In this document: piece by piece, positions 358-42,474 of the stretch
Numbering within the stretch: position 1 is the stretch's first letter
How the letters are laid out: every line of letters begins with the position of its first letter
Origin: a virus
Lineage: Duplodnaviria > Caudoviricetes
Reading direction: 5' to 3' (one strand)
DNA length: 57,272 nucleotides
IMG/VR virus record: IMGVR_UViG_3300030372_004705
Location: 1-57,272 of that record
The notes under the pieces: generated by a model
Told to the model about the DNA's origin: nothing
The model's database searches: none
What the model saw: the letters and a program-made list of their open reading frames with translations, nothing else
Translations under genes and position numbers: made by a program

Positions 358-1649
358 TGTTTCAAGCACGATCATCGTCGAAAAGAAGTAATATAGGTAC
401 ACTTACCGATAGATGTATTGTTTTAGATGGTGTTGATGATTATATTCAATTAAAAGATGCATTTAATCATGAAGATCATTCAGTAGTAATGTGGGTTAAA
501 TTTAATGGAACTAGCGGTGATCAAGTTCTTTTTGACAATAGAGATGGAAATGATGATGGCATGTGTATTAAAATTAACAGTGATGAAAAAGTAGTATATC
601 AATTAAATGATCAAGATGTTACATCTAGTGGTAATGCCGCTTATGTATCTAGTGGAGTTCTTCAAACTGGAGTATGGCATCACATTATATGTTCATTTTC
701 AGGAGCATTCATGTATATATGGTGCAATGCTTCAGTAATTGGAATGCTGTCTACAGGTACCGATGCAGATATATCTGTTGATTCAACTTCTTATGCTACT
801 TTAGGTAAAAATAGACTTGCAGATAATAGTTATTTTAACGGTTCTATTTCAGAGATAGCAGTATATAATGTTGGTGTACCACCTGGTGTTGTTCAAGATT
901 TATATAATAGTAGAGACCCAGTTAATCATAATGAACTTACAATATCTGATCGTTTACAAGGATGGTATACATTTGGAAATTCTGATGGAGATGATGCAGG
1001 AACTAGTAATGTACGTGGATTAATAAAAGATAATACTTGGGAATATCGTATTAATGGACCTGAGTTATATACATTATCTAATGCTGCTGCAATAGGATCT
1101 CAAGCAAATGCTACAACAGGTTGGGTGATTAGCAGTGGTCATACTGTTATAACAACCGATTCTGCGTCTAAAATTTCATATGGGACTCGTGCGTTAAAAA
1201 TAATATTTGGAGTCGGTGGCAGTGGAACTTGCAGTACTGCTTTTCCTGCAACTGTAGGTAAAATTTACAGAATACAATATTTAAACAGGGCAGCATCTTG
1301 GAATGATTATGGAGATTCTATTAGTGATGTTCATTTACAAGTAGGAAATGCAGCAGGTAATGGGGGATCTTTTAATGAAGGATTATTTACCGATATTGAT
1401 AGTGGTAAATTTTATACAATGGCTCAACTTGAATCATCTACTATATTGCCTATTGTATTTTATTGTAGAATAGTAGCAGTCGATGGATCTGGGGATGCTC
1501 ATTTTACAATTAATCATGTTGGATCTAATGGCTCTGGAACATTCTGGATAGGAGGATTTAGTGTTACCGAAATGACAGGCCGATCAGGAGAAATAATAAA
1601 TCGTACTACTAGTGGATTTGCAGTTGATCCACCAGATTCACCTAATTAA
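357..1649 (+). CDS. LamG/concanavalin A-like lectin-domain virion (receptor-binding) protein
   Basis: LDGVDDYI, SVVMWVK, WHHIICS, FNGSISEIAVYN motifs typical of LamG domains; carbohydrate-binding-module-like C-terminal part. Confidence 0.8.
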   Translation: MFQARSSSKRSNIGTLTDRCIVLDGVDDYIQLKDAFNHEDHSVVMWVKFNGTSGDQVLFDNRDGNDDGMCIKINSDEKVVYQLNDQDVTSSGNAAYVSSGVLQTGVWHHIICSFSGAFMYIWCNASVIGMLSTGTDADISVDSTSYATLGKNRLADNSYFNGSISEIAVYNVGVPPGVVQDLYNSRDPVNHNELTISDRLQGWYTFGNSDGDDAGTSNVRGLIKDNTWEYRINGPELYTLSNAAAIGSQANATTGWVISSGHTVITTDSASKISYGTRALKIIFGVGGSGTCSTAFPATVGKIYRIQYLNRAASWNDYGDSISDVHLQVGNAAGNGGSFNEGLFTDIDSGKFYTMAQLESSTILPIVFYCRIVAVDGSGDAHFTINHVGSNGSGTFWIGGFSVTEMTGRSGEIINRTTSGFAVDPPDSPN

Positions 1650-4454: not shown

Positions 4455-5214
4455 TATTGTAAAGACTGCAATAGTAACACCAGATAAGCATTTTCCAATA
4501 CATGATAAAAAAGCTATTAGTGTAGTATGTCAAGCAATCGAGATTGTTAAACCTACTACTTATATAGACTTAGGAGATACTGGAGAATGGGAGTATTTTA
4601 GTACACACTATTGGAAAGGTAGAAATGCTAAACCGATGGAAGATTTAATACCATTATTAGATAAGGATGTAAATGCAGTTAATAAAGGTATGGACATAAT
4701 TGATAAATCTTTAGATAAAGTTAAATGTAAAGAAAGGCATTTTGTTCAAGGAAATCATGAGGTTTGGTTAGATAAATTTGTTACTAGGTATCCTTATTTA
4801 GATCATTATATGACTTATAATGCTTTAAAATTAAAAGAAAGAGGATATGATTATCACCCATATAATAAAAAGGATAATTTAAAAATAGGTAAATTAAACT
4901 TTACGCATGGGAAATTTGTATCAAAATATCACTCATTCAAACATTTAGATGTGTATGGTGAAAGTATTATGTATGGACATACACATGATTTACAAAGGCA
5001 TACTAAAACTAATAGAGGTGGTACAATTAGTGCTTGGAGTTTAGGATGTCTGAAGGATATAGAAGCTGATGAAGATTGGCTTGGTGGTAGATTAACTAAT
5101 TGGAATCACGCATTTGCTATTGTTAATTTTTTTAAAAATGGTAACTTTAATGTTGAAGTGGTAGAAATTATTAACGGGAAAACAACTTTATGGGGGAATC
5201 TCATAAAGGGATAA
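4447..5214 (+). CDS. Calcineurin-like metallophosphoesterase
   Basis: D-x-H (PDKH), LGD, GNHE, HG and GHTH motifs in order; GGAGG SD before ATG 4447. Confidence 0.88.
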   Translation: MNSIVKTAIVTPDKHFPIHDKKAISVVCQAIEIVKPTTYIDLGDTGEWEYFSTHYWKGRNAKPMEDLIPLLDKDVNAVNKGMDIIDKSLDKVKCKERHFVQGNHEVWLDKFVTRYPYLDHYMTYNALKLKERGYDYHPYNKKDNLKIGKLNFTHGKFVSKYHSFKHLDVYGESIMYGHTHDLQRHTKTNRGGTISAWSLGCLKDIEADEDWLGGRLTNWNHAFAIVNFFKNGNFNVEVVEIINGKTTLWGNLIKG

Positions 5215-5226
5215 TTATGGAGAAAC

Positions 5227-5592
5227 ATGGAACAAGAAGTTATAGAGAATTTAATTGGTCAGTATGGCTGGATGGCTATTATAGGCTTCTTTTTCCTAAT
5301 AGGACGTAATACAATAGAGTCTGCAATAGAGGCTATTAAAGTATTTGCAGGAGATGATTTAAATACAGATGATGTAATTATTTTTGATAGTAGACCTGCA
5401 AGAGTAGTAAGAGTAGGACTGTGGAAAACTATCTTATTTGTTTACGAAGTAGGATGTGCTAATGGTAAAGCATATGTTAAAGGAGGAAATAAGGTGGCAA
5501 TACAAAATGATAAACTAAAAGACCATTTAATAGAAAAGCCATTACCAATGCTAGATCTTAAAAAATGGGATGATTGTGAGGATGATAAATGA
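5227..5592 (+). CDS. Membrane protein with MscS-like beta domain
   Basis: N-terminal hydrophobic helix, then LNTDDVIIFDSRPARVVRVGLWKT resembling the MscS middle domain. Confidence 0.5.
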   Translation: MEQEVIENLIGQYGWMAIIGFFFLIGRNTIESAIEAIKVFAGDDLNTDDVIIFDSRPARVVRVGLWKTILFVYEVGCANGKAYVKGGNKVAIQNDKLKDHLIEKPLPMLDLKKWDDCEDDK

Positions 5593-5768
5593 ATGACACG
5601 TTAAAAGTTTTAGGTCAATATCCCGAATTAGGTATTACTAGTAGTGTAGGTTCTGGAATAATACATTGGCTTGGAATATTAAACCCTATATTAAGTTTTA
5701 TATCACTTATTATAGGTATTAGTATAGGATTAATGACAATATATATGAAAATAAAAGGAGGTAAATAA
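5589..5768 (+). CDS. 59-aa holin-like membrane protein (not in ORF track)
   Basis: ATGA and TAATG overlaps with neighbours; hydrophobic ILNPILSFISLIIGISIGLMTIY followed by basic tail. Confidence 0.6.
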   Translation: MNDTLKVLGQYPELGITSSVGSGIIHWLGILNPILSFISLIIGISIGLMTIYMKIKGGK

Positions 5769-6244
5769 TGGCTGATTTAATAGTAACTCATACAGAAAGT
5801 TTAACTTTAAATGGGACTCAGCAAGGTGGAACAAATTCAGTAACTATAGGATCTATAGCAAATGTATTTAAGCGTATTATAACAGTTGCTGCAAGTAACG
5901 ATACCACTTTAGTTTCTTTTCATTCTGACCAACATGATGATGATGGAACTATTGATGTAAATGATGTTAAATACTTAAGAGTAACTAATCTTGCGACAGA
6001 TGCGGCTCATATTTGTAATTTAAATTTACAAATAGAAGCTGGTGAAGATGATAGTGCTGCAGATGAATCTTCAACTATATTATTAGGAGCAGGACATAGT
6101 TTTGTTATGGGAGCTACAGCTGATGCTTTATCAGTAGATGATGATGCAGCTACTCCAGATGTAACTTTACATCATTTAGAAAGTATAATTGCAGATACTG
6201 TGTCTACTGCTGTTCAGTTAGAAGTATTTATAGCAACTGTTTAA
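5768..6244 (+). CDS. Acidic beta-rich hypothetical protein, probably virion
   Basis: GGAGG SD; KYLRVTNL motif, loosely like VYLKNL in 55130..55513. Confidence 0.65.
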   Translation: MADLIVTHTESLTLNGTQQGGTNSVTIGSIANVFKRIITVAASNDTTLVSFHSDQHDDDGTIDVNDVKYLRVTNLATDAAHICNLNLQIEAGEDDSAADESSTILLGAGHSFVMGATADALSVDDDAATPDVTLHHLESIIADTVSTAVQLEVFIATV

Positions 6245-20086: not shown

Positions 20087-23000
20087 ATGGCAGATACTCA
20101 GCTAGTTGAAAGAATGAGGCAAGAATTATTATCTCAAGGTGTTGATTGGGATACTAATAAAATACAAAATTATATAACTTTACGAAAATCAGCTGCAAGA
20201 TTATCTAATGCAATGAATAATCAAGTATCAGAAAGACAACAAAATCAGCCAATGACTGATATGTTCTCATCTTACAGACCTAGTACAGAGTTAAAAATTC
20301 CCCAAGAAGATAAAAATGCATTATGGGACTTTACTGGTAATTTATTATGGGAAGCAATGGACTCAGCAACATTCGGTGCTGCAGGTTGGGCTGAGACCGA
20401 TCTAGAAGAAGCATTAACTGGTGGAGGACCAGAAGGTTTTGCTGGTAGAGTTGGAGCAGGTCTTGGTAGTTTTGCAGGATTTTTAATTCCTATGGCTGGA
20501 ACAGGCAAAGCAATAGGAGCTGGGGTTTCAGCTATGAAAGGCGGTACTAAATATGCTGCTAAAAAATTAACTGAAGAAGGTTATAAGTATTTAGGTGAAA
20601 CTGCTGTTAAAGGGCAAGGATATAAAGCTTTTAATAAACTATCTAATGTTGAAAAAGCAGATATATTTAAGCCATTTACTGATGATATTCTAGAGTTTGG
20701 TAGCAAACTATCTAACAAGCAAGTAAGAGAAGCGTATACTGGTCGTTTTGGAGCTAATTTACAAAGAGAAATAGCAGAAAGATTACAAAATGTTGGAATA
20801 AGGCCTACTTCAGCAAATGTTAAAGCTATAGAAGATGTTATTAAAAATGCTTCAGGTGTATCTAAAAATTCTACTTTACCTGTAGCTTCTTTAGAAGAAA
20901 AAATTAAATTAATATTAGGAAATACATTTGGAGCAAGTACTACAGCAGCTGTTGCAGCTACTGCTTTAGCAGAGGGTATTACGTTTGCTGCAGTAGAAAC
21001 ACCTTTTGAATTATTTAATTCTATGGAAGAAGGAAGAAAAGCTGATTATACAGGTAGAGCAGCTCATGCATTTGCTCTTGGTAATGCTTTAGGATTAATT
21101 AAATATGTCCCAGGTGGTAAAGACTGGAAAGCTGGAGGTATTGCGAAAGAAGCTATTAAAGGTTGGAGAATTATTAATAAAAAGAAACCTATTGCATCGC
21201 TTGATTTATCTGACGCAAGTGCTAGAAAACAATTACAAACCTTTGCAGAAAGTGTTTACAATAGAACAGGTGGTCAAATCTTTAGAGATAAAATGGGTGA
21301 TTTAGGTATTTATCATAAGGGTGATATTGCTACTATAATGAATAAAAAAGGTGGTGCTAAGAAAATACAAGAAATTATGATGAGTATTGAAAGAGATTTT
21401 AGTAAACGTTGGTTACCTACATTTATTAAAGAAGCATCAGAAGATATTGTTGGAGCAACACCAAGAATGTTAGCTGGATCTATGGCATTTAATTATGAGA
21501 TGGTATTTGCTGAAGATATACCTTTAGAAGATAAGGTTTTTCATGCTTTACTTGGTGCTTATATGACTAAAAAAGGTAGGAAATTAGAGTATACAGGTCA
21601 AGGTGGTAGCGTAGAATCTTATACTATATCTGATAAAAATAGACCAAGTGATAATTTTAATACTATAGGCAACTATTTAGAAGTACTAGGAATGCATCCT
21701 AAGGATTATAATTTAAGTGCTGCAATAGCATCTGAAAGAATATTGCAAAAATTCCCTGCTAATATAAGAGAAACAGATGATATAAAGTCATTAGAAAAAA
21801 TATTAGAGCCTGTTATTGTTCAAGATAATGGAACAAATCCACCTAAACCTAAAAAGAATGCAGGTCAAGAGGGAACCAATCCTATTTATGAATATTTAAT
21901 GGTTATCTATGATAGGCAAATAGGGCAAAGAAAAGGCACTAGAATGCTTGGCCCTGATAGGGTAACTAGAGAACAGATTAAAGCTATTGAAAGTAAATTA
22001 AAAAAACATGATTTCTTAAGTATTACAGAAACAGGTGGTATTAATAAATTATCCCATATTGATGATATAATGTATAATGCTGCTGATGGGACTATGAAAA
22101 AAGTAATTGATTTACATGTTGATGCTATGATAGATATGTACAATCATCTTGCAGGGGCTGGTATCAACATTACTAGATCTGCTGATACTAATGTTCCTAC
22201 TATGTTATGGCAGATTAGTGGAAGAGGAAAGCAAGGTGAAAAACTTACTGCAGAAAATAAAGAATTATTAGCTACATATATGAGAATGCTTAACGCATTT
22301 GATGGTAGACAGGTGGTGATTAATAAAGATAAAGGTCAAAGAAAAAGAGTAACTAATGAAGACTTTAAAGGTTTAAAAGAAATAGTTGATAAATTTGAAA
22401 CAAAGATAGATGAAATAATATATGGCGATAGTAAATTAAGTATGACTAGAGCTCATAAATTAATGCAAGAAGGATCTTTATATGAACTAATAGTAGGACA
22501 ACAATTTTATAAGGGTATACGAGAAACTCATCAAAAATTAAATGATACAAATAATTCTAAAAAATCATGGAATATACAACCAGAAAATGAAGGTTCAGGC
22601 AAACATGATGGTATTATATTTGATGACTTAATTACACAATTGCTATATCATCCTGATGGATCTTTATATAAAAGTATAGAATTTGGGAAAGGTGTATCGG
22701 AATCTCAAAAAAGAATGATTAATACACTTCATAGATTACTCTCCTCAGATCCTAATGGCGACTCTATTTTATTTGAAGGTCAATCTCATAGCATTACTAT
22801 TACTGGTAATGATAAATTAGCATTAAACAATTTAAGAGAAGTGCTATATCGTAATCAGATGAAAAATTTATTATATGAAAGTGCTATAGATTCAAGTCAA
22901 TTTATACATTCTTACCAAGATTATGCATTTAGAACTTTTTTAAATTCAGCAGTAAAAAGAAATGGTAAACCATTAAATGCTAATGATAGAGCTGCAGTTA

Positions 23001-26000
23001 GCCAATTGTTAGATTTTAGATTACTAGGTCCTAATTTTCAATTAATTGATGTTATTGGAGTAATAGAGAATTTACAATCGGTTGCATTAAATCCTGGTAA
23101 ATTAACAGTAGAAGCTGGACGTCTTTTAGATGGAGGTAAACCTTTTCACTTTGAATCTAAATCATTTGCTGAATTAGATTTACCAAAAGGACTCAAGAGC
23201 TCTATGGAAGCATTGCAAGAACGTGGAATTAAAACTGCTGACCAAATAGAATTAATGATTAAAACATATAAAGATATTATTGAGCCTTTAATGACAGATG
23301 GCAAAGGCAATGGATTTATTAAACCTTCTACTACTATTACGCAAATTACTGAAGCTCAATTAGAAAATATAATATTTAAATTAGATGCTATATATAAAAT
23401 GAAGGATACTAGGTTTCATGATAATTTATTGCAGCAATTAAGTAATTTAAAAGATGGAGTTGATGGTATAGATGATGTTTCAAGAGAATCATTGAATTAT
23501 TTATATCATTTATATGGTAGTGGAAGAGCAAGTACATCTCAATTAATAAGAGGTATGGCTGAAAGAAAGCTTTATAGCTTTAAAGATCAGGAAATAATTA
23601 TTGATCCTGGGGATAAATTTCTAAAAGAAAAAATTAAAGAAGTTATAACAGACGTTGAATTTGATGTTGCGACTAGAAGTGATGCTGCATTATTAGAAGG
23701 AAAGATTAATAAATTTAAAACTTTTGAAAGTAGAGATAGCGAAGTAAATGTCTATCAAAATGTTACTAAACAAAGCTTGATAGCAGATTATAATTTACCT
23801 GAAAGTGTTAAATTTGAACGTAAGGATCTATCTGATGTAATAAATGAAGCACATAAAATCAATGGAGATGGTGAAAAGGTTTACTTTAAAGAACGTCCTA
23901 ATGAACTATCAATGACATATGAGCAACAGTTTAAGTTTTTAAGCGAGTTGCAAAAGGCTGTAGTTAGTGCAGGTGAAACTAGAGTATTAAGAAGGCTTAG
24001 CGGTACTGAAGGATATGGTATATGGACTGAATCAGATTATACAGTATTTGACAATCATTTATTTAAAGAATTAGACAATATTGTAGGTAAAGATGGTTGG
24101 GCAATAGTTGATATGGATTTTGCAAATAGACGAAATGGAGTAGATAATGCTCGTATTAATGAAAATGGATCTAAATTAAAGTTATACAACTTGATTTATA
24201 ATACTCGTAAGCATATTGATACAAAATTAAGAACAGATGATTATGGTACTTTAATGCACGAAAAACATCAAGGTGGTGTGGTAGTTGAAATACCTGGTGT
24301 TAAATGGGCTATATCTATAAACAAGAATAAATTAGATAAAGTTGTTAATATAGTTAGACATAAATTAGATGAATATAAAAAAACATATACTGATCCTAAA
24401 TTTAAAGGCATATTCAGAGAGTTAGAAAAGCATTTTCAAGTTATTACTGAAAAACAAAAAAAAGGTCCTAAAGGTAAAGAAAAAGAAGAAATAGTATACA
24501 GACCATCAGATGTATTAACTGAAGGTAGCTCTTTAGAAACATTGTTAACTGTAATTCAAAATGATGCGTGGATGAAAAAATATTGGTGGGACCATTTAGC
24601 AGAAGTACATAATAATAAAAATGATCAAACTGGTGTAAAATTAGCAAGAAGAATTAAAATGTATGCAAATACTAGTATGCGTATGCTTAGTGATACTCAA
24701 CTTTCAGAAACACTAAAACTATTCCAAGAGAATATTTCTAATAAAAAAGAATTACGTCAAAACAGTGCCTATAAAGGATTGAAAAAATTAAAGAAAAATG
24801 GTGGTATGAGAATAATCATTGCTCGTGATGAAAACTTTGAATTAGGTGGTAGGCAATTTTCAGTATTAAAGGAATTAGATGCTCAAATCAAAGGAGAGAA
24901 AGCAAAAAATCCATTACTTGACTTTGTTGAAATTAAAGAAGGACCAGAGGGACAATTAGAGTTTGCTGGGGGTAAAGATTTAAGTAAAGTAGATTCATAC
25001 ATGGTTATTGACAAAACTACTTTAGATGGGTTAATGGGATTAAATGGAGCTGGTTATGTCAGTGGTGCTGGTGGTATTAAACCAATGATTCATAAAATAG
25101 GAGATGGTGTAATATTAGGTAAAACAGCATTTATTACAGATCCTAATATGACTAAGTTTTTTAAGAAAAATAATTTAGATGGAGTATTATTTGAATCAGG
25201 AGCAAAGATTGTAAATGAAAATTCTAAAATTTATACTGAGTTTGATTCTATGGAAAGCCTAGCAAAGAAAACAAAGATTTCTAAAGATCATGTCGAGTTA
25301 TTAAAGTTAGAAGATATGTCGTTAGGCTTTGTTGTTAAACCTAATCATAACGCTACTTTACCATACCAGGTAACTAACCATTTAAATTTAGCAGAAAGTA
25401 GAGATTTATTTGATAATTATTTAAAATCAGAGTTAAATGAATTTGTAAAAGATTCTCAAAGATATTTTAGTATATCAGATCCTTTAGAAGGATTAGCTAT
25501 GGCAAAAATGATGTCAGAGGGAGCTAGTGGCACTAGTCCAAACTCATTATATGCTAGATGGATTAATAGTAATGGATTTATACATAGCCAAGTAATAATG
25601 CCTGATTTTATACGACATATTAAAAGTAATAGAATAGATAAAGGTGGAATTATGAGCATGCAAACTCCTCATGGAGGACAAGCTGTTAATTCGCCTGGAG
25701 AAAAGTTAAGATTTACTACGTTTACCAAAGGAGAAGGTCAAACTGGGGAAATATTTACATATGGAGAAGCATTATTGCCTCATGTGTCTGGAGATAAGCC
25801 TATAGATTTACAAAATCTTCATATAATAAAACATAAATCAAAAGGCAAGGATGAATTAGTACATATTTCAAAAATTAAAGGAGCTGATAAATTAATTAGC
25901 GATAGAATGTTATTAAAAGATGCTTTAAAAGCAATTAAATCAATTAATAAAAACTATCAAATTGCTGTTACTTACAGGCGTAATCCTAGTACTAGACCTG

Positions 26001-28702
26001 GTGATATGGTTATTGTAGGTATAAAGGATTTATTACATGCAGATTATGGAAATCAAACAAAACTTAATGCTTCTGACTTTGCTCTTAGATTAGAAGGTGA
26101 TTATGATGTAGATAAAACAGATTTTTTCTGGGATGCTCCTACAAGTGTATTAAATAAATGGAAAGCGTTATCTGGTGAAGTATTAAGAGCTAATCCAGAT
26201 ACTTATGAATCTGGAAATAAAACAAGTTTAAGAAAGAAATCAAGTGGTGGATTAGTAGAGAAGTTTGATTGGGTTAATCCTACTAGTGTAAAAGAGTGGG
26301 ATACTCATTTAGCTAATTCAGAAAAATTAAGAGGAACAATTGTTAAAACTCAAAGATTATTATCAGCTTTAGAACATTATGATTCATCCCCTAATTTAAT
26401 CCAAACTACTGAGGGTAAAGGCATTGGAGGTTTTGCATTAAATTTAAAAAATGTTGAAAATGGTGGTTATATCTATGTAGACCCTATTAAATTAAGAAAA
26501 GCTAGAAGATTATTGGCTGAAGATATACAAAATATCACTGATTCTTTAACAGGATATAATGATAGAGTATATAATCAAAATTGGTATCAAGACTTTTTAT
26601 TTGGAGGTATAAGCGGAAGGTATGAAGGTATATTTAGTAGAGCCGCATATGATAAAACTGTTAAAAAAGGCAAATGGGTTCCAAATCCTGATTCAGAATG
26701 GTCTGCTACTAATGTAGAAAGAGCTATTATTACTGAAGCTATTAAGCCTTACAATGCTATGTTGAGATTAGGTACATCTTTATTTTCTAATGGAAAGCAA
26801 GAAAACGTAAGATATGAGGACTTTTTAACTAATATGGCACAATATGATGCCTCTATGAATAATCTGTCTAATAGAGTGTATTGGAAGCTTAAAAATCAAG
26901 GCTCTGCAAAAACTAAGGTAGACTTAGCTGATTTAAATAAGTACTTTCTTAATAAGAATCAAAAAGTTGAAAATATATTTGGTGACTTTGGTCAAAACAT
27001 TAGACCAGGTTTATTCCAGAGAGGTATTCCAACTAAAGTAGGTGATCAATTTCCAAATATGTTAGCTTTTGAAAGAACAATGTCAGTCTTAGTGCATAAT
27101 GATTATATGAAATTAGAACTTCCTGGGAAGTTAGAGGGTGAAGCTTTAAATAATTATCACGATTTTTATAGTAAACATATGTATAGTGAAAACTATGATG
27201 CTGTAGGTAAAGAATTTATTAAGCAATTGCAAAAAAATGACAAAATGTTTGGTTATGCAAATTATTTAGCATTTAATATTAGTAAGCAGCAAGGAGCAAG
27301 AAGAAATGCTTTAGCTAAAGGTCAGAAAAATTTAGCAGAAGTAATACAAGAATCTATTGAAAGGTTGGAAGCTCAAAAAAATACAGTAGAAACTTCATTA
27401 ATTTTCGGTGAAGGCGCTCCAGGTGCAGGTATGGAATATGCTAAAAAAATAAGAGATGGAGTTATATCTTCTTATATTAATGATGTTTATAAGCATAATA
27501 GACTTCCTAAAGATTGGAATGAAAAAGCAAGGCCAGCAAAAGGTGATCTTAGACCTGATCAATTAAGTAAAAGTTTCCCAGAAGGGAAAGCTGGAGAACA
27601 TGAAATTACTAGTTTTGTAAAAAATAATTATAGTTTATTTAGAAATTATGCTCGTAATAAAGGTGTAATTAAATTTAAAGGTGTATCTACTCCAGAACAA
27701 ATAGAGCTTTTAATATGGAATAATATGTTAAGTAAATATGCTCAAATAGGAATACATGATATGTATAGTGGTAGAGATAAAGCTTTAGAGATGGATAAAG
27801 ATATAGCTGATTTTCAAAAGTTTTATAGAAATGAATGGAGACAAAACTTAAGTGGTAGTGATTGGACTGCTGATCAAACTAGAACTAGTAGTATAGTTAA
27901 CGACAGGTTAGAATTATTATTTCAAAAATGGAATATTCCAGGAAAAGGAACTGAAGAAGGTGGTCATGGTATGTTAATGCTATGGAAATTAATGAAACCT
28001 GCAGAAGATCCAAATGCCTTTACATATCTTCACAGAAGAATTACTCCAGCATTTAAATCAGAAAGCTTGTCTATGTTGAAACTTGGATTGAGATTTATAT
28101 CTAATGCTCCTGATAATTATATAACTAAAATAGTAAAAGATGGTATATTTGATCATACTGCTAGATGGTATAATAACAGCTTTAGAGCAATGTATGGTCA
28201 ACAAGGAGAAAGAGGCAATGCATTATTAAATAGATTAAGCAATGAAATGAATCATCAATCTGATGTTTTTGCTGGTGCACCTTTAGTTGATAATATTAAA
28301 GGATGGAAACCAGGATTTCAAGAAATAGAATTAAATGATAATCTTGCTTTGTTATTTGGTAATGATAGAAGAAGTATTACTAGCGTATTTGCAAATTCTA
28401 TAGTAGATCCATCTGTTGTAGGCAATATGTCCAGTCTGTCTAAATGGGCATTTAGTCCTGTAGCATATATACCAGAAAGCACTAGTCTTATGAATTACCC
28501 TTCAATTAATGGTTTCAAAAACTTTAAACAAGCAAATATGACTGATGCTAATATTATGTTAGGTAATTCTCATAATCTGAATTTGTTATTCAATAGAACA
28601 CCGAAAGTAATAGATCAACCATATAGTAATATGCATGAAAAATCATCTAGAGGTTACGAATCGCTAGAGCAAAGAATTAATGAAAAAGTAGGATGTAAAT
28701 AA
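20087..28702 (+). CDS. Giant internal virion protein, putative single-chain two-barrel (DPBB) virion RNA polymerase
   Basis: YRRNP...EGDYDVDK (DxDxD at 26099-26113) resembles the R-x-P...DFDID site of crAss-like phi14:2 gp66; upstream D and K..K motifs (VDSY, IKP, LGKT). Confidence 0.72.
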   Translation: MADTQLVERMRQELLSQGVDWDTNKIQNYITLRKSAARLSNAMNNQVSERQQNQPMTDMFSSYRPSTELKIPQEDKNALWDFTGNLLWEAMDSATFGAAGWAETDLEEALTGGGPEGFAGRVGAGLGSFAGFLIPMAGTGKAIGAGVSAMKGGTKYAAKKLTEEGYKYLGETAVKGQGYKAFNKLSNVEKADIFKPFTDDILEFGSKLSNKQVREAYTGRFGANLQREIAERLQNVGIRPTSANVKAIEDVIKNASGVSKNSTLPVASLEEKIKLILGNTFGASTTAAVAATALAEGITFAAVETPFELFNSMEEGRKADYTGRAAHAFALGNALGLIKYVPGGKDWKAGGIAKEAIKGWRIINKKKPIASLDLSDASARKQLQTFAESVYNRTGGQIFRDKMGDLGIYHKGDIATIMNKKGGAKKIQEIMMSIERDFSKRWLPTFIKEASEDIVGATPRMLAGSMAFNYEMVFAEDIPLEDKVFHALLGAYMTKKGRKLEYTGQGGSVESYTISDKNRPSDNFNTIGNYLEVLGMHPKDYNLSAAIASERILQKFPANIRETDDIKSLEKILEPVIVQDNGTNPPKPKKNAGQEGTNPIYEYLMVIYDRQIGQRKGTRMLGPDRVTREQIKAIESKLKKHDFLSITETGGINKLSHIDDIMYNAADGTMKKVIDLHVDAMIDMYNHLAGAGINITRSADTNVPTMLWQISGRGKQGEKLTAENKELLATYMRMLNAFDGRQVVINKDKGQRKRVTNEDFKGLKEIVDKFETKIDEIIYGDSKLSMTRAHKLMQEGSLYELIVGQQFYKGIRETHQKLNDTNNSKKSWNIQPENEGSGKHDGIIFDDLITQLLYHPDGSLYKSIEFGKGVSESQKRMINTLHRLLSSDPNGDSILFEGQSHSITITGNDKLALNNLREVLYRNQMKNLLYESAIDSSQFIHSYQDYAFRTFLNSAVKRNGKPLNANDRAAVSQLLDFRLLGPNFQLIDVIGVIENLQSVALNPGKLTVEAGRLLDGGKPFHFESKSFAELDLPKGLKSSMEALQERGIKTADQIELMIKTYKDIIEPLMTDGKGNGFIKPSTTITQITEAQLENIIFKLDAIYKMKDTRFHDNLLQQLSNLKDGVDGIDDVSRESLNYLYHLYGSGRASTSQLIRGMAERKLYSFKDQEIIIDPGDKFLKEKIKEVITDVEFDVATRSDAALLEGKINKFKTFESRDSEVNVYQNVTKQSLIADYNLPESVKFERKDLSDVINEAHKINGDGEKVYFKERPNELSMTYEQQFKFLSELQKAVVSAGETRVLRRLSGTEGYGIWTESDYTVFDNHLFKELDNIVGKDGWAIVDMDFANRRNGVDNARINENGSKLKLYNLIYNTRKHIDTKLRTDDYGTLMHEKHQGGVVVEIPGVKWAISINKNKLDKVVNIVRHKLDEYKKTYTDPKFKGIFRELEKHFQVITEKQKKGPKGKEKEEIVYRPSDVLTEGSSLETLLTVIQNDAWMKKYWWDHLAEVHNNKNDQTGVKLARRIKMYANTSMRMLSDTQLSETLKLFQENISNKKELRQNSAYKGLKKLKKNGGMRIIIARDENFELGGRQFSVLKELDAQIKGEKAKNPLLDFVEIKEGPEGQLEFAGGKDLSKVDSYMVIDKTTLDGLMGLNGAGYVSGAGGIKPMIHKIGDGVILGKTAFITDPNMTKFFKKNNLDGVLFESGAKIVNENSKIYTEFDSMESLAKKTKISKDHVELLKLEDMSLGFVVKPNHNATLPYQVTNHLNLAESRDLFDNYLKSELNEFVKDSQRYFSISDPLEGLAMAKMMSEGASGTSPNSLYARWINSNGFIHSQVIMPDFIRHIKSNRIDKGGIMSMQTPHGGQAVNSPGEKLRFTTFTKGEGQTGEIFTYGEALLPHVSGDKPIDLQNLHIIKHKSKGKDELVHISKIKGADKLISDRMLLKDALKAIKSINKNYQIAVTYRRNPSTRPGDMVIVGIKDLLHADYGNQTKLNASDFALRLEGDYDVDKTDFFWDAPTSVLNKWKALSGEVLRANPDTYESGNKTSLRKKSSGGLVEKFDWVNPTSVKEWDTHLANSEKLRGTIVKTQRLLSALEHYDSSPNLIQTTEGKGIGGFALNLKNVENGGYIYVDPIKLRKARRLLAEDIQNITDSLTGYNDRVYNQNWYQDFLFGGISGRYEGIFSRAAYDKTVKKGKWVPNPDSEWSATNVERAIITEAIKPYNAMLRLGTSLFSNGKQENVRYEDFLTNMAQYDASMNNLSNRVYWKLKNQGSAKTKVDLADLNKYFLNKNQKVENIFGDFGQNIRPGLFQRGIPTKVGDQFPNMLAFERTMSVLVHNDYMKLELPGKLEGEALNNYHDFYSKHMYSENYDAVGKEFIKQLQKNDKMFGYANYLAFNISKQQGARRNALAKGQKNLAEVIQESIERLEAQKNTVETSLIFGEGAPGAGMEYAKKIRDGVISSYINDVYKHNRLPKDWNEKARPAKGDLRPDQLSKSFPEGKAGEHEITSFVKNNYSLFRNYARNKGVIKFKGVSTPEQIELLIWNNMLSKYAQIGIHDMYSGRDKALEMDKDIADFQKFYRNEWRQNLSGSDWTADQTRTSSIVNDRLELLFQKWNIPGKGTEEGGHGMLMLWKLMKPAEDPNAFTYLHRRITPAFKSESLSMLKLGLRFISNAPDNYITKIVKDGIFDHTARWYNNSFRAMYGQQGERGNALLNRLSNEMNHQSDVFAGAPLVDNIKGWKPGFQEIELNDNLALLFGNDRRSITSVFANSIVDPSVVGNMSSLSKWAFSPVAYIPESTSLMNYPSINGFKNFKQANMTDANIMLGNSHNLNLLFNRTPKVIDQPYSNMHEKSSRGYESLEQRINEKVGCK

Positions 28703-39731: not shown

Positions 39732-39887
39732 CTATTTCCAACTATTTAGCTTATCCACATAGCAATCTTCTGCTATATCAGCTAATTTTTCAATTTCAAG
39801 ATTATTATGCTTGGTATCTTTAAATTTCATTGTATATTTCTTTATAGTACCATGTTTATCTAATCTAATTACTTTTACTTTTAGCAT
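39732..39887 (-). CDS. 51-aa hypothetical protein (not in ORF track)
   Basis: GGAGG SD; MLKVKVIRLDKHGTIKKY... Confidence 0.55.
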   Translation of the reverse strand: MLKVKVIRLDKHGTIKKYTMKFKDTKHNNLEIEKLADIAEDCYVDKLNSWK

Positions 39888-40408
39888 ATTTTAAAACCTC
39901 CTGATTCTTTACAAAATAATGCAAAATGCTTAACATTATCCTTATCAAAGGGATAGTTAGCATAAAATCGTTCATCATCATTTTTACTTTCTTTCAATTT
40001 TAGCATTTGTTTGTCATGATCTTGTTTATATTTATCAACAATACCATTATCAAGTAGTTCATTTAATCTTTTAGATATTTTTAATGCTTTAGTTTTATTT
40101 ATTTTACGACCATCATTATATGATCCAGCTGATATATCTTCTAGGCTTAATATATCATCACAATGTTCACAAACAAAGTCCCACAATGGGCGCCACCACC
40201 ATACATTGTTACGAAAATATAACCCAGGATTATCATTATGATATTGTTCATATTCTTTCCAATATTTTGATTGATCATCTTCATTAAGATTATCTTGTAT
40301 TTCCCAACGTTCCTTCCAATCCTCAATAGAATTAATCATACCATAAATACTAGTATCTTTTAATTCTTTATTAATTTGAGGTTTTACACCATGTAAATCA
40401 AATCCCAT
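39881..40408 (-). CDS. Phage hypothetical protein
   Basis: AAGGAG SD; MGFDL...YFRNNVWWWRPLW...FCKESGGF. Confidence 0.75.
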   Translation of the reverse strand: MGFDLHGVKPQINKELKDTSIYGMINSIEDWKERWEIQDNLNEDDQSKYWKEYEQYHNDNPGLYFRNNVWWWRPLWDFVCEHCDDILSLEDISAGSYNDGRKINKTKALKISKRLNELLDNGIVDKYKQDHDKQMLKLKESKNDDERFYANYPFDKDNVKHFALFCKESGGFKIC

Positions 40409-40773: not shown

Positions 40774-41178
40774 CTAATATTTCTTATTAGTCTGTACAGT
40801 ACTCCAAGTATCTAACTCTGACTCACATTCAATACATTTATCTTTCTTGTAAATCTTAGTACCAGATCTTCTATGTATTGCTGTAGTATGTTTCTTTAAG
40901 ATATACTCAAAGTCTTCAGCTACTTCTTTAATTCTTCTTTTTAATGGTGGATCATCTAAAGAATCTACTATTAAAGTGTGAAATCCATGTATATCATTTG
41001 AGCTATCAGCTAATAATGTATCTAGATACTTCCTATGTATTACTACATTCTTTTCATGTAGCTCAATTATTGCTAGTAACTCTACTAATAAATCACGCTG
41101 CGTCAACATAAATGCTATTAAATGCATAGCACTATTACTTTGCAACATTGTTGTATCCAACTTTAATTTATTGTTCAT
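40774..41178 (-). CDS. Hypothetical early protein
   Basis: AAGGAG SD before ATG 41178 (MNNKL...); CxxC near C-terminus. Confidence 0.65.
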   Translation of the reverse strand: MNNKLKLDTTMLQSNSAMHLIAFMLTQRDLLVELLAIIELHEKNVVIHRKYLDTLLADSSNDIHGFHTLIVDSLDDPPLKRRIKEVAEDFEYILKKHTTAIHRRSGTKIYKKDKCIECESELDTWSTVQTNKKY

Positions 41179-41221
41179 CTTAACTCCTTTATTTAGTTTA
41201 GTGTAATTAATAAATCTTTTA

Positions 41222-41979
41222 AATAATATGACTGGTGAAGGATTTGTTATTACCTTCAAGGTATTTTGTTTCTAGTGGGCTTTTGGCCTCACGACACGAA
41301 TAACAATAGTTGTCACTACCTTGATCATAGTTGGTTGACGCCAATTACATCACAAGATCCATCACAGAATGTTATCCTCTATACATACCGAAACTACGGG
41401 TTGATATATTAGTATAGATTAGTGCCGACAATAAATAACATGGATTTCTCCTTTTATTTATTTGTCCCGTCACACCTGCACATACTTGCATAATTACATG
41501 CATATCATTATCATTTGATAACAATACTAGGCATTCCCATAAGTATGTCACCTGCGTCCCTTTACTGCAAAGAACACCACAGGTTTACCCAAACGTATAG
41601 TATTTCAATATTAAATGATCAGTTTAATATCTATCACTATACTGCCATATTATTAATTTAATTCTTTTGTCATTATAAGCACAAGCCTGATAGTTTCTAT
41701 AGGTAAACCTACATTATACTCTAGAAATATAACGCAACTATATTTTATACAATCAGTGTAATTAATTAATTGCTTTACTTATGCTACAAATGATATTGAC
41801 TTGGATAATAAGGCACAATAAGACCCCAGAGCTATTTCTAGGTGAATTAACCCTGTTATCTTATTACTTATTATTTATCAATGTTATTAGAGAGGAGTGG
41901 CAACCTAAATAGGGATAAGCTATCTATTATTATATCCGCAGTGCTTAAAAGAGACTAGATTCCGTCTCTTCCTCTCTAA
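41222..41979 (-). ncRNA. Candidate large structured non-coding RNA (or a cluster of structured RNAs)
   Basis: ~760 nt without a credible long ORF, filled with nested helices; G-U pairs favour the minus strand. Confidence 0.6.
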
Positions 41980-41988
41980 ATGTTTATT

Positions 41989-42183
41989 TTAGCCAATTAT
42001 TGGCTTTAATTTGCCATATTTTTCTTCATGACAAGGAATACAATTTCTTTCTTGTATACCTCCAAAGACATCTTCAATAACTACAAGTTTACTCCAATTA
42101 TAGTAAACATCATTGTCCATTGTAGAACAACCTTTACATTTTGATTTAAACATCCCAACATTATGTATATAACATCTTTCCAT
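41989..42183 (-). CDS. Small Cys-rich early protein
   Basis: AAGGAGG SD; CxxH, CxxC, CxxC. Confidence 0.6.
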   Translation of the reverse strand: MERCYIHNVGMFKSKCKGCSTMDNDVYYNWSKLVVIEDVFGGIQERNCIPCHEEKYGKLKPIIG

Positions 42184-42198
42184 TGTATCCCTCCTTAT

Positions 42199-42474
42199 CT
42201 AAAATAACTCTTGTAATTTATCGATTTCAAGCTTTTCATCAATATCAGCATCTCGATAAGCACTACGTCTTTCAAAACTTTCATCTATGCTAATACCATC
42301 AATAGGATCATCAGGATGTGTCATAGTATCCCAATCAAATTCAGGAGACATTCTTTGTTCCATTCTTTTCTCCCAAATTTCATGAAACTTTTTTTCTATT
42401 GCTTTATCAGCTTTATAATTACCTGATAATACATACAATAGATTATTTACAACATTGCTAATAACTTTTAACAT
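42199..42474 (-). CDS. Hypothetical early protein
   Basis: AAGGAG SD; 91 aa. Confidence 0.65.
   Translation of the reverse strand: MLKVISNVVNNLLYVLSGNYKADKAIEKKFHEIWEKRMEQRMSPEFDWDTMTHPDDPIDGISIDESFERRSAYRDADIDEKLEIDKLQELF

Follow-up and report, generated by a model that had tools for sequence, protein, structure and literature searches.

GOLLD and ROOL are, to our knowledge, among the largest bacterial and phage RNAs without a known function. Both build RNA-only nanocages, as was shown in 2025 (PMC12286853), the GOLLD cage being a homo-oligomer (14-mer, D7). The terminal loop of GOLLD (L27) makes long-range base pairs, and a Met-tRNA precedes GOLLD env-38 (PMC12286853). ROOL, a large RNA of phages or prophages that is encoded close to tRNA genes, assembles from RNA only (PMC12286853), and thereby resembles the RNA described here (RNA B); it differs in being longer (574 model positions) and in occurring in rumen and Lactobacillales phages. 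The candidate structured RNAs derived from IMG/VR by Fremin et al. (2023, PMC10690425) share their data source and their kind of evidence (covariation) with the present analysis. The main text of that paper presents mostly short motifs, none of which is named like RNA B, while its list of 10,006 candidates may include RNA B or parts of it; full-text literature searches found no description of RNA B. A first-pass annotation, made from the sequence alone, had named GOLLD and ROOL when describing this region and had been able to match it to no known class. The comparison was apt, as sister phages carry GOLLD at the same position, and no Rfam family has been found for RNA B.

The window (i.e. the whole stretch of DNA that was analysed) is a complete virus record of 57,272 bp with about 30% G+C, in which a PHROGs scan recognised a large terminase, a portal, a major head protein, a primase-helicase and an Erf-like annealing protein. 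The terminases of cultured phages nearest to that of the window are ~25% identical to it. The structural module includes an ORF of 2871 aa (20087-28702, plus strand), and the large ORFs next to it that were scanned gave no PHROG match. From about 31.5 to 43 kb the genes are on the minus strand, replication genes among them. The largest ORF-free stretch of the window (41260-41988, 729 nt, counting ORFs of 60 aa or more on both strands) is far longer than the next (289 nt), as the first-pass annotation had noticed, and extends to 41179-41988 if an ATG at 41178 that is preceded by a ribosome-binding site is counted. No tRNA or tmRNA gene was found in the window by ARAGORN or Rfam, nor any Rfam family at gathering score; the weak Rfam matches on 40900-42300 (SNORA66, RAGATH-12, Thermales-rpoB, SNORD10, UCA1 and manA) are all far below cut-off and were rejected. 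A nearby gene for a 175-aa protein was used as a marker of the locus. Its only cultured-phage matches are gp23 of Pelagibacter phage HTVC023P (31.8% identity) and a protein of Actinomycetia phage DSL-LC01, which, together with the 30% G+C, hints at a SAR11-type host. The features of the locus, and that of the sister phage L007 with which it is compared, are as follows.

39881-40408, minus strand: gene for the 175-aa marker protein (576 relatives in IMG/VR)
40774..41178, minus strand: downstream gene, 134 aa, starting with ATG; its ribosome-binding site (AAGGAG) lies 44 nt past the end of RNA B
41222..41654, minus strand: RNA B, the core structured RNA of about 433 nt, with ends set by the closing helix P1
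41644..41650, minus strand: 5' strand of P1 (helix 1), pairing with 41226-41232
41596..41641, minus strand: P2, a long hairpin with helix 2 (41634-41641/41596-41603)
41587-41590, minus strand: 5' strand of P3 (helix 3), pairing with 41233-41236
41578-41584 with 41550-41556, minus strand: P4 (helix 4), covarying, its loop being an optional insert site
41480..41548, minus strand: three-hairpin domain, closed by helix 5 (41541-41548/41480-41487)
41428..41463, minus strand: A-rich hairpin (helices 11 and 12) with a GNRA tetraloop, GAAA, at 41445-41448
41292..41427, minus strand: most conserved core, in which helix 13 (41422-41427/41292-41297) encloses helices 14-20
41390..41394 with 41268-41272, minus strand: pseudoknot 1, loop GUUUC with GAAAC
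41237..41257, minus strand: 3'-terminal hairpin, loop at 41242-41252
41246-41249 (UAAC) with 41436-41439 (GUUA), minus strand: pseudoknot 2, joining the centre of the terminal loop to the 3' side of the A-rich hairpin
41670..41880, minus strand: domain A, an upstream conserved non-coding module, 87% identical to 4880-5095 of locus L003
41887..41979, minus strand: stem-loop block (weak), just past the stop of the upstream gene
41989..42183, minus strand: upstream gene, 64 aa, Cys-rich; its homologue in L003 sits between domain A and RNA B
L007 1323-1731, plus strand: GOLLD RNA (Rfam model match, 166.9 bits)

The minus strand of 41222-41654 encodes a non-coding RNA of ~433 nt that is under strong structural selection. 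The fold of 41180-41990 reaches -207.3 kcal/mol on the minus strand (z -5.73, 20 shuffles) versus -166.6 kcal/mol on the plus strand (z -2.99), and 41222-41655 by itself has a folding z of -4.76, with none of 100 shuffles as good. The minus strand also follows from the invariant G-U pair of helix 13 and from many G-U/A-U alternations; it is also the strand favoured in the first-pass annotation. Its claim of one large ornate RNA over 41222-41979 was too wide: it stands for 41222-41654, while the rest is separate and weakly supported.

Nine loci in IMG/VR encode relatives (47-57% identity) of a 420-aa protein that neighbours the gap in the window, and in three of these a non-coding stretch is 68-79% identical at the nucleotide level over 330-440 nt, i.e. 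RNA B is conserved better than the neighbouring protein. Further IMG/VR copies were found with patterns taken from the RNA B alignment, and scans with such patterns likewise yielded 28 marine metagenome loci, all 28 of them true by nhmmer; the pattern matches L011, L012 and L024-L026 were recognised by nhmmer as chance. After removal of duplicates the family comprises 30 distinct homologues of 424-512 nt, from contigs of marine viruses and metagenomes. When 185,579 species genomes were scanned with patterns, one round gave no match and the next a single chance match (6.9 bits, nhmmer), so that no host or prophage copy was found among them, and a BLASTN search with the gap found nothing in 50,697 cultured-phage records either. 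As far as searched, the family is confined to uncultured marine tailed phages.

Comparison of the 30 homologues, which the first-pass annotation had recommended, revealed covariation well above that of the controls. RNAalifold, applied to a MAFFT alignment without tuning, predicted 97 pairs, of which 57 show compensatory changes, and on the trimmed alignment (A5) the consensus amounts to 132 pairs in 22 helices, including one pseudoknot. In total, 94.8% of the cells are paired, compared to 35.8-47.0% when the partners are slid by 1-3 columns; 80 pairs are changed on both sides (24-32 when slid) and the covariation score is 0.437 (0.078-0.111 when slid). None of 500 shuffles reaches the observed value for pairing, both-side change or covariation. 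These substitutions bear on the possibility that the region is a small protein gene, or a gene in an alternative code, for which a 59-codon ORF starting with GTG (41372-41551, minus strand) could be put forward. The longest ORFs across the 30 homologues span 26-61 codons and differ in position and strand, so that there is no conserved ORF among them, while the substitutions are compensatory in helices and the indels do not come in threes; the probability of a protein gene is consequently taken to be close to nil.

P1 joins the two ends of the RNA. In the window it reaches 41654/41222, forming the 11-bp helix with one G-U that had been seen at the outset, of which the inner 7 bp (41650-41644/41232-41226) correspond to helix 1. 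Both-side changes affect four of these seven pairs. The share of paired cells in helix 1 is only 76%, because MAFFT shifts some of the 5' ends, and the pairing is visible by eye. The helix first proposed at 41595-41601/41636-41642 is helix 2 at the base of P2, where seven of the eight pairs change on both sides. The apical loop of P2 holds, in the window, the 6-nt palindrome UGAUCA (about 41616-41621), which is present in 11 of the 30 homologues; the palindrome is kept as UAAUUA in two more, and 14 have GACG. The P4 loop carries an extra hairpin of ~58 nt in 12/30 homologues, absent from the window, and a peripheral insert of ~24 nt occurs in two. Helix 5 coincides exactly with a helix of the first-pass annotation (41480-41487/41541-41548) and has both-side changes in five of its eight pairs; helices 5-9 are 98-99% paired, with 21 of their 26 pairs changed on both sides. 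The tetraloop of the A-rich hairpin is GAAA or GAGA across the homologues. In the core, helix 13 is invariant, with its G-U pair kept in 30/30, and helices 14 and 17-20 are 95-100% paired. Two pairings of the first-pass annotation did not survive the alignment: 41256-41263/41317-41324 clashes with the covarying helices 10, 19, 20 and 22, and the bases of the 9-bp match 41581-41589/41702-41710, offered as a pseudoknot or alternative fold, belong to the covarying helices 3 and 4, while its partner region exists in only 3/30 homologues.

All five pairs of pseudoknot 1 change on both sides, and 100% of its cells are paired in the 30 sequences. Pseudoknot 2 had to be sought for each sequence separately, since a fixed-column search gave none owing to alignment shifts. 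A perfect 4-bp Watson-Crick match was found in 26/30, with six different covarying pair sets, the exceptions being L009, L018, L033 and L038; cross-pairings between sequences with different loops gave 0 matches in 710. The terminal loop that provides one strand of this pseudoknot reads UAAUCUCAAAU (or, in two sequences, UAACUCUCAAAU) in 12 of the 30 RNAs, and one further sequence has UAAUCUCUAAU.

RNA B always has the orientation of the early genes around it, and a tRNA-Met (ARAGORN) or tRNA (Rfam) precedes it on the same strand in 8/30 loci; in L018 and L033 the 3' end of the tRNA-Met abuts P1. In 17 of the 24 loci with a downstream ORF, a ribosome-binding site and start codon follow 14-44 nt past the RNA, with no terminator between RNA B and the start codon, as would suit a cis-acting leader of the downstream gene (riboswitch-like or a translational regulator). 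In the remaining seven, however, the next ORF is 128-518 nt away, and the proteins directly downstream fall into 14 unrelated families in the 24 loci, which argues against such a role. A leader is also difficult to reconcile with P1, which seals RNA B off from the downstream ribosome-binding site, and with the cassette-like behaviour of RNA B, which may be there or missing while the flanks are conserved, and it is considered very unlikely. Promoter and terminator signals in general were not above chance (14 found versus 12.4 expected).

The cassette nature of RNA B, with P1 as its boundary, follows from L005, in which the flanks homologous to L002 end at 4775 and start again at 5275, on either side of the RNA (4776-5268). 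Such presence and absence, with boundaries at P1, would also be expected of a mobile or catalytic RNA (such as a self-splicing intron without an ORF, or a self-cleaving cassette element), and so would GNRA loops and a pseudoknotted core in which unpaired bases are invariant. Phage group I introns in particular are of comparable size, AU-rich, have a pseudoknotted core and GNRA loops, and are occasionally distributed like cassettes. They differ, however, in that RNA B interrupts no gene, has no Rfam match and has a closing helix that joins its ends instead of a splice-site helix. No group I, group II or small-ribozyme family was found at E<=10 in 40900-42300 or in 10 homologue loci, and the group II domain model RF01998 gave no match; moreover, the gene on either side is complete and has a start of its own, which leaves no exons to join. 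A catalytic or mobile element is thus as improbable as a leader. At L022 (6888-7317, minus strand) the 3' two-thirds of RNA B are identical to L029, while the 5' part is different and has no P2 hairpin; this copy may be a recombinant or truncated variant. Directly after RNA B, L050 (970-1045, plus strand; identical to the L017 region) contains a tRNA-like element that scores 38.2 bits with the Rfam tRNA-Sec model (cut-off 47) and is not called by ARAGORN.

In the syntenic sister phage L007, the equivalent ORF-free gap is matched by the GOLLD model (RF02032) at 166.9 bits, i.e. RNA B occupies the slot that GOLLD holds in sister phages. With the 175-aa protein as marker, the best 80 of its 576 IMG/VR relatives were fetched, of which 79 records were searchable. 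GOLLD is present in 17 of these 79 (loci L145-L161), 10 of them above the cut-off, with scores from 216 to 85 bits, which suggests a wide GOLLD diversity in the phage lineage of the window. Its strand is that of the 175-aa gene in 17/17, and its position is 362-2773 nt upstream of that gene in 16/17; RNA B in the window lies 813 nt upstream of the same gene. Among the 80 marker loci (the best 80 of 576), two contain RNA B. Both RNAs are missing from about 60 of the 79 searched records, so that the slot can evidently stay empty. GOLLD is also absent from Pelagibacter phage HTVC023P.

No record was found to contain both. GOLLD is absent from all eight RNA B records (the window, G002, G006 and G080-G084), six of which are at least 98% complete, and RNA B from all 17 GOLLD records, four of which are at least 91% complete, in a search that found both positive controls. 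The two RNAs thus exclude each other, as judged mainly from six plus four near-complete genomes, the exclusion being weak in fragmentary records. ROOL (RF03087) gave no match in the window at E<=10, its threshold of 99.1 bits not being reached, and was not found in the 79 relatives, the ROOL searches having given no positive-control match.

The sharing of a slot and strand by sister phages raises the question whether RNA B is a very divergent homologue of the GOLLD 3' domain, beyond recognition by the Rfam model. The sizes are similar (433 nt versus 416 GOLLD model positions, RNA B being about as large as the conserved GOLLD 3' domain), the GOLLD scores in the relatives fall gradually from 216 to 85 bits, and tRNA-Met neighbours are common to both. 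Furthermore, the loop of the 3'-terminal hairpin holds UAAUCUCA in 12/30 RNA B, to be compared with UA(A/G/U)UCUCA in 17/17 GOLLDs, and the terminal loops of both pair over a long range (for GOLLD, PMC12286853). Against this, the GOLLD model (13 candidates scored) has no match in the window at E<=10, none among the matches listed at E<=10 for 10 homologue loci and none at E<=1 in five RNA B records; the threshold tested for membership, at least 150 bits with the Rfam covariance model, is not reached by RNA B. Profile searches (nhmmer, filters off) link the families in neither direction, with E>9 for RNA B against the 17 GOLLD loci and a best E of 2.7 for GOLLD against the 30 RNA B sequences. 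The layouts also differ: RNA B has its ends joined by P1 and contains other pseudoknots, whereas GOLLD consists of a 10-bp pseudoknot enclosing three hairpin groups. The centre of the terminal loop varies and covaries in RNA B, whereas UCUCA is fixed in the 17 GOLLDs. A conserved second (5') domain is lacking in RNA B, given that the tRNA of L018 and L033 is immediately followed by the RNA. The conserved architecture of the GOLLD 3' domain consists of a long pseudoknot around three hairpin groups and a terminal P27/L27; RNA B has a terminal hairpin with a UAAUCUCA-type loop and long-range pairing, and the remaining layout differs; the 7-8-mers that the two share elsewhere are expected by chance. 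Common descent from the GOLLD 3' domain is accordingly regarded as unlikely, though clearly less so than a leader or a catalytic element.

The reading that we prefer, and hold to be probable, is that RNA B represents a new, uncatalogued family: a stand-alone, trans-acting large phage RNA that replaces GOLLD in its slot and its job. With GOLLD it has in common that it is phage-encoded, large and ornate, that it lies in the early-operon slot on the same strand with tRNA-Met neighbours, and that it has GNRA loops and pseudoknots. It is filed as a new family within the known kind of large ornate phage RNAs near tRNA genes. RNA B would be transcribed as part of an early or replication operon on the same strand and probably be released from the polycistronic transcript by cleavage. 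At loci with an abutting tRNA, the 5' end could be made by tRNA 3' processing, as suggested by the two relatives in which the tRNA-Met ends where RNA B starts. P1 would then protect both ends and make the RNA stable. By analogy with GOLLD, we infer its function and oligomerisation: RNA B might act during infection as a self-contained folded RNA particle, possibly a homo-oligomer, for which the palindromic P2 loop, missing in 14/30, could speculatively serve as a self-kissing contact. That RNA B constitutes, beside GOLLD and ROOL, a third class of giant phage RNA that self-assembles and is independent of them in structure, swappable for GOLLD in a collinear genome, is a bolder proposal, and it is put forward tentatively, as something we would rather doubt than expect.

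Expression was sought in marine metatranscriptomes, transcription having been one of the checks proposed in the first-pass annotation. One library contains a single contig on the 2-kb stretch around RNA B, a 380-nt contig that covers 41234-41610 at a depth of 16.1 with 6 differences from the window, while the DNA run of the same sample, 3.4 times larger, gave a 228-nt contig at a depth of 3. This is a hint that a discrete, abundant RNA is made from the locus, to be read with the reservation that the contig is unstranded and stems from one RNA library of one study, in which DNA may be present. With matching at 85% likeness, a relative might be represented by its conserved RNA alone, so that the uncovered flanks prove little, and the DNA runs X5, X6, X2 and X3 represent small shares, which makes the parts of the stretch that they leave uncovered uninformative.

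Upstream of RNA B, the further domains that had been proposed at first met with mixed results. The region 41668-41886 folds well (z -4.76, 200 shuffles), yet of the 23 predicted pairs of domain A that are changed in L003, pairing is kept in 12 and lost in 11. The L003 homologue of 41670-41885 is followed by homologues of the two genes flanking the RNA in the window and then by RNA B, and since two protein genes part them there, the upstream module is separate from RNA B. A homologue of domain A accompanies 3/30 RNA B sequences (the window, L053 and L003); pattern scans of IMG/VR returned only the known L003 contig, the other eight pattern loci being chance matches. A 32-nt block that is identical in the window and L003 holds a sigma-70-like TAGAAA-16-TATAAT (41699-41672), in a promoter scan that overall was not above chance, and domain A also has a weak RAGATH-12 match (18.6 bits, E 0.75). 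Domain A may thus be an RNA or a promoter region. The stem-loop block 41887-41979 gave a z of -2.19, with 7 of 200 shuffles as good, and has no counterpart in L003.

If RNA B is indeed a new family, from abundant uncultured marine phages, that takes the place of GOLLD, comparison of the two reveals what the shared job requires, i.e. the terminal loop, the linkage to tRNA-Met and early expression. At ~430 nt, RNA B is a small new target for structure work, and its slot is a hot spot at which a widespread phage lineage carries large RNAs (576 relatives of the 175-aa marker in IMG/VR). Should the more doubtful reading as a third class be true, an unrelated fold can do what GOLLD cages do, and nature would have provided, in the pairs of sister phages, a swap experiment from which that function could be found.

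Other loci contain material of a related kind. The gene after RNA B in L002 (5298-5924, plus strand) encodes a 208-aa protein starting with a DLDGT motif, which we take to be typical of HAD or polynucleotide-kinase-type phosphatases. In L096, an 82-nt Rfam tmRNA match (1126-1207, plus strand; 56.4 bits, cut-off 47) lies within a 914-nt ORF-free stretch (955-1868). The gaps of L096, L088 and L090, at the same hot spot and with neither GOLLD nor RNA B, have conserved blocks of 150 nt or more in common and may hold yet another RNA. Finally, L005 has a 1-kb ORF-free gap (4711-5770) with a tRNA (4921-4993), likewise with neither GOLLD nor RNA B, which is a mosaic of short modules common to L002, L003, L030 and L017.
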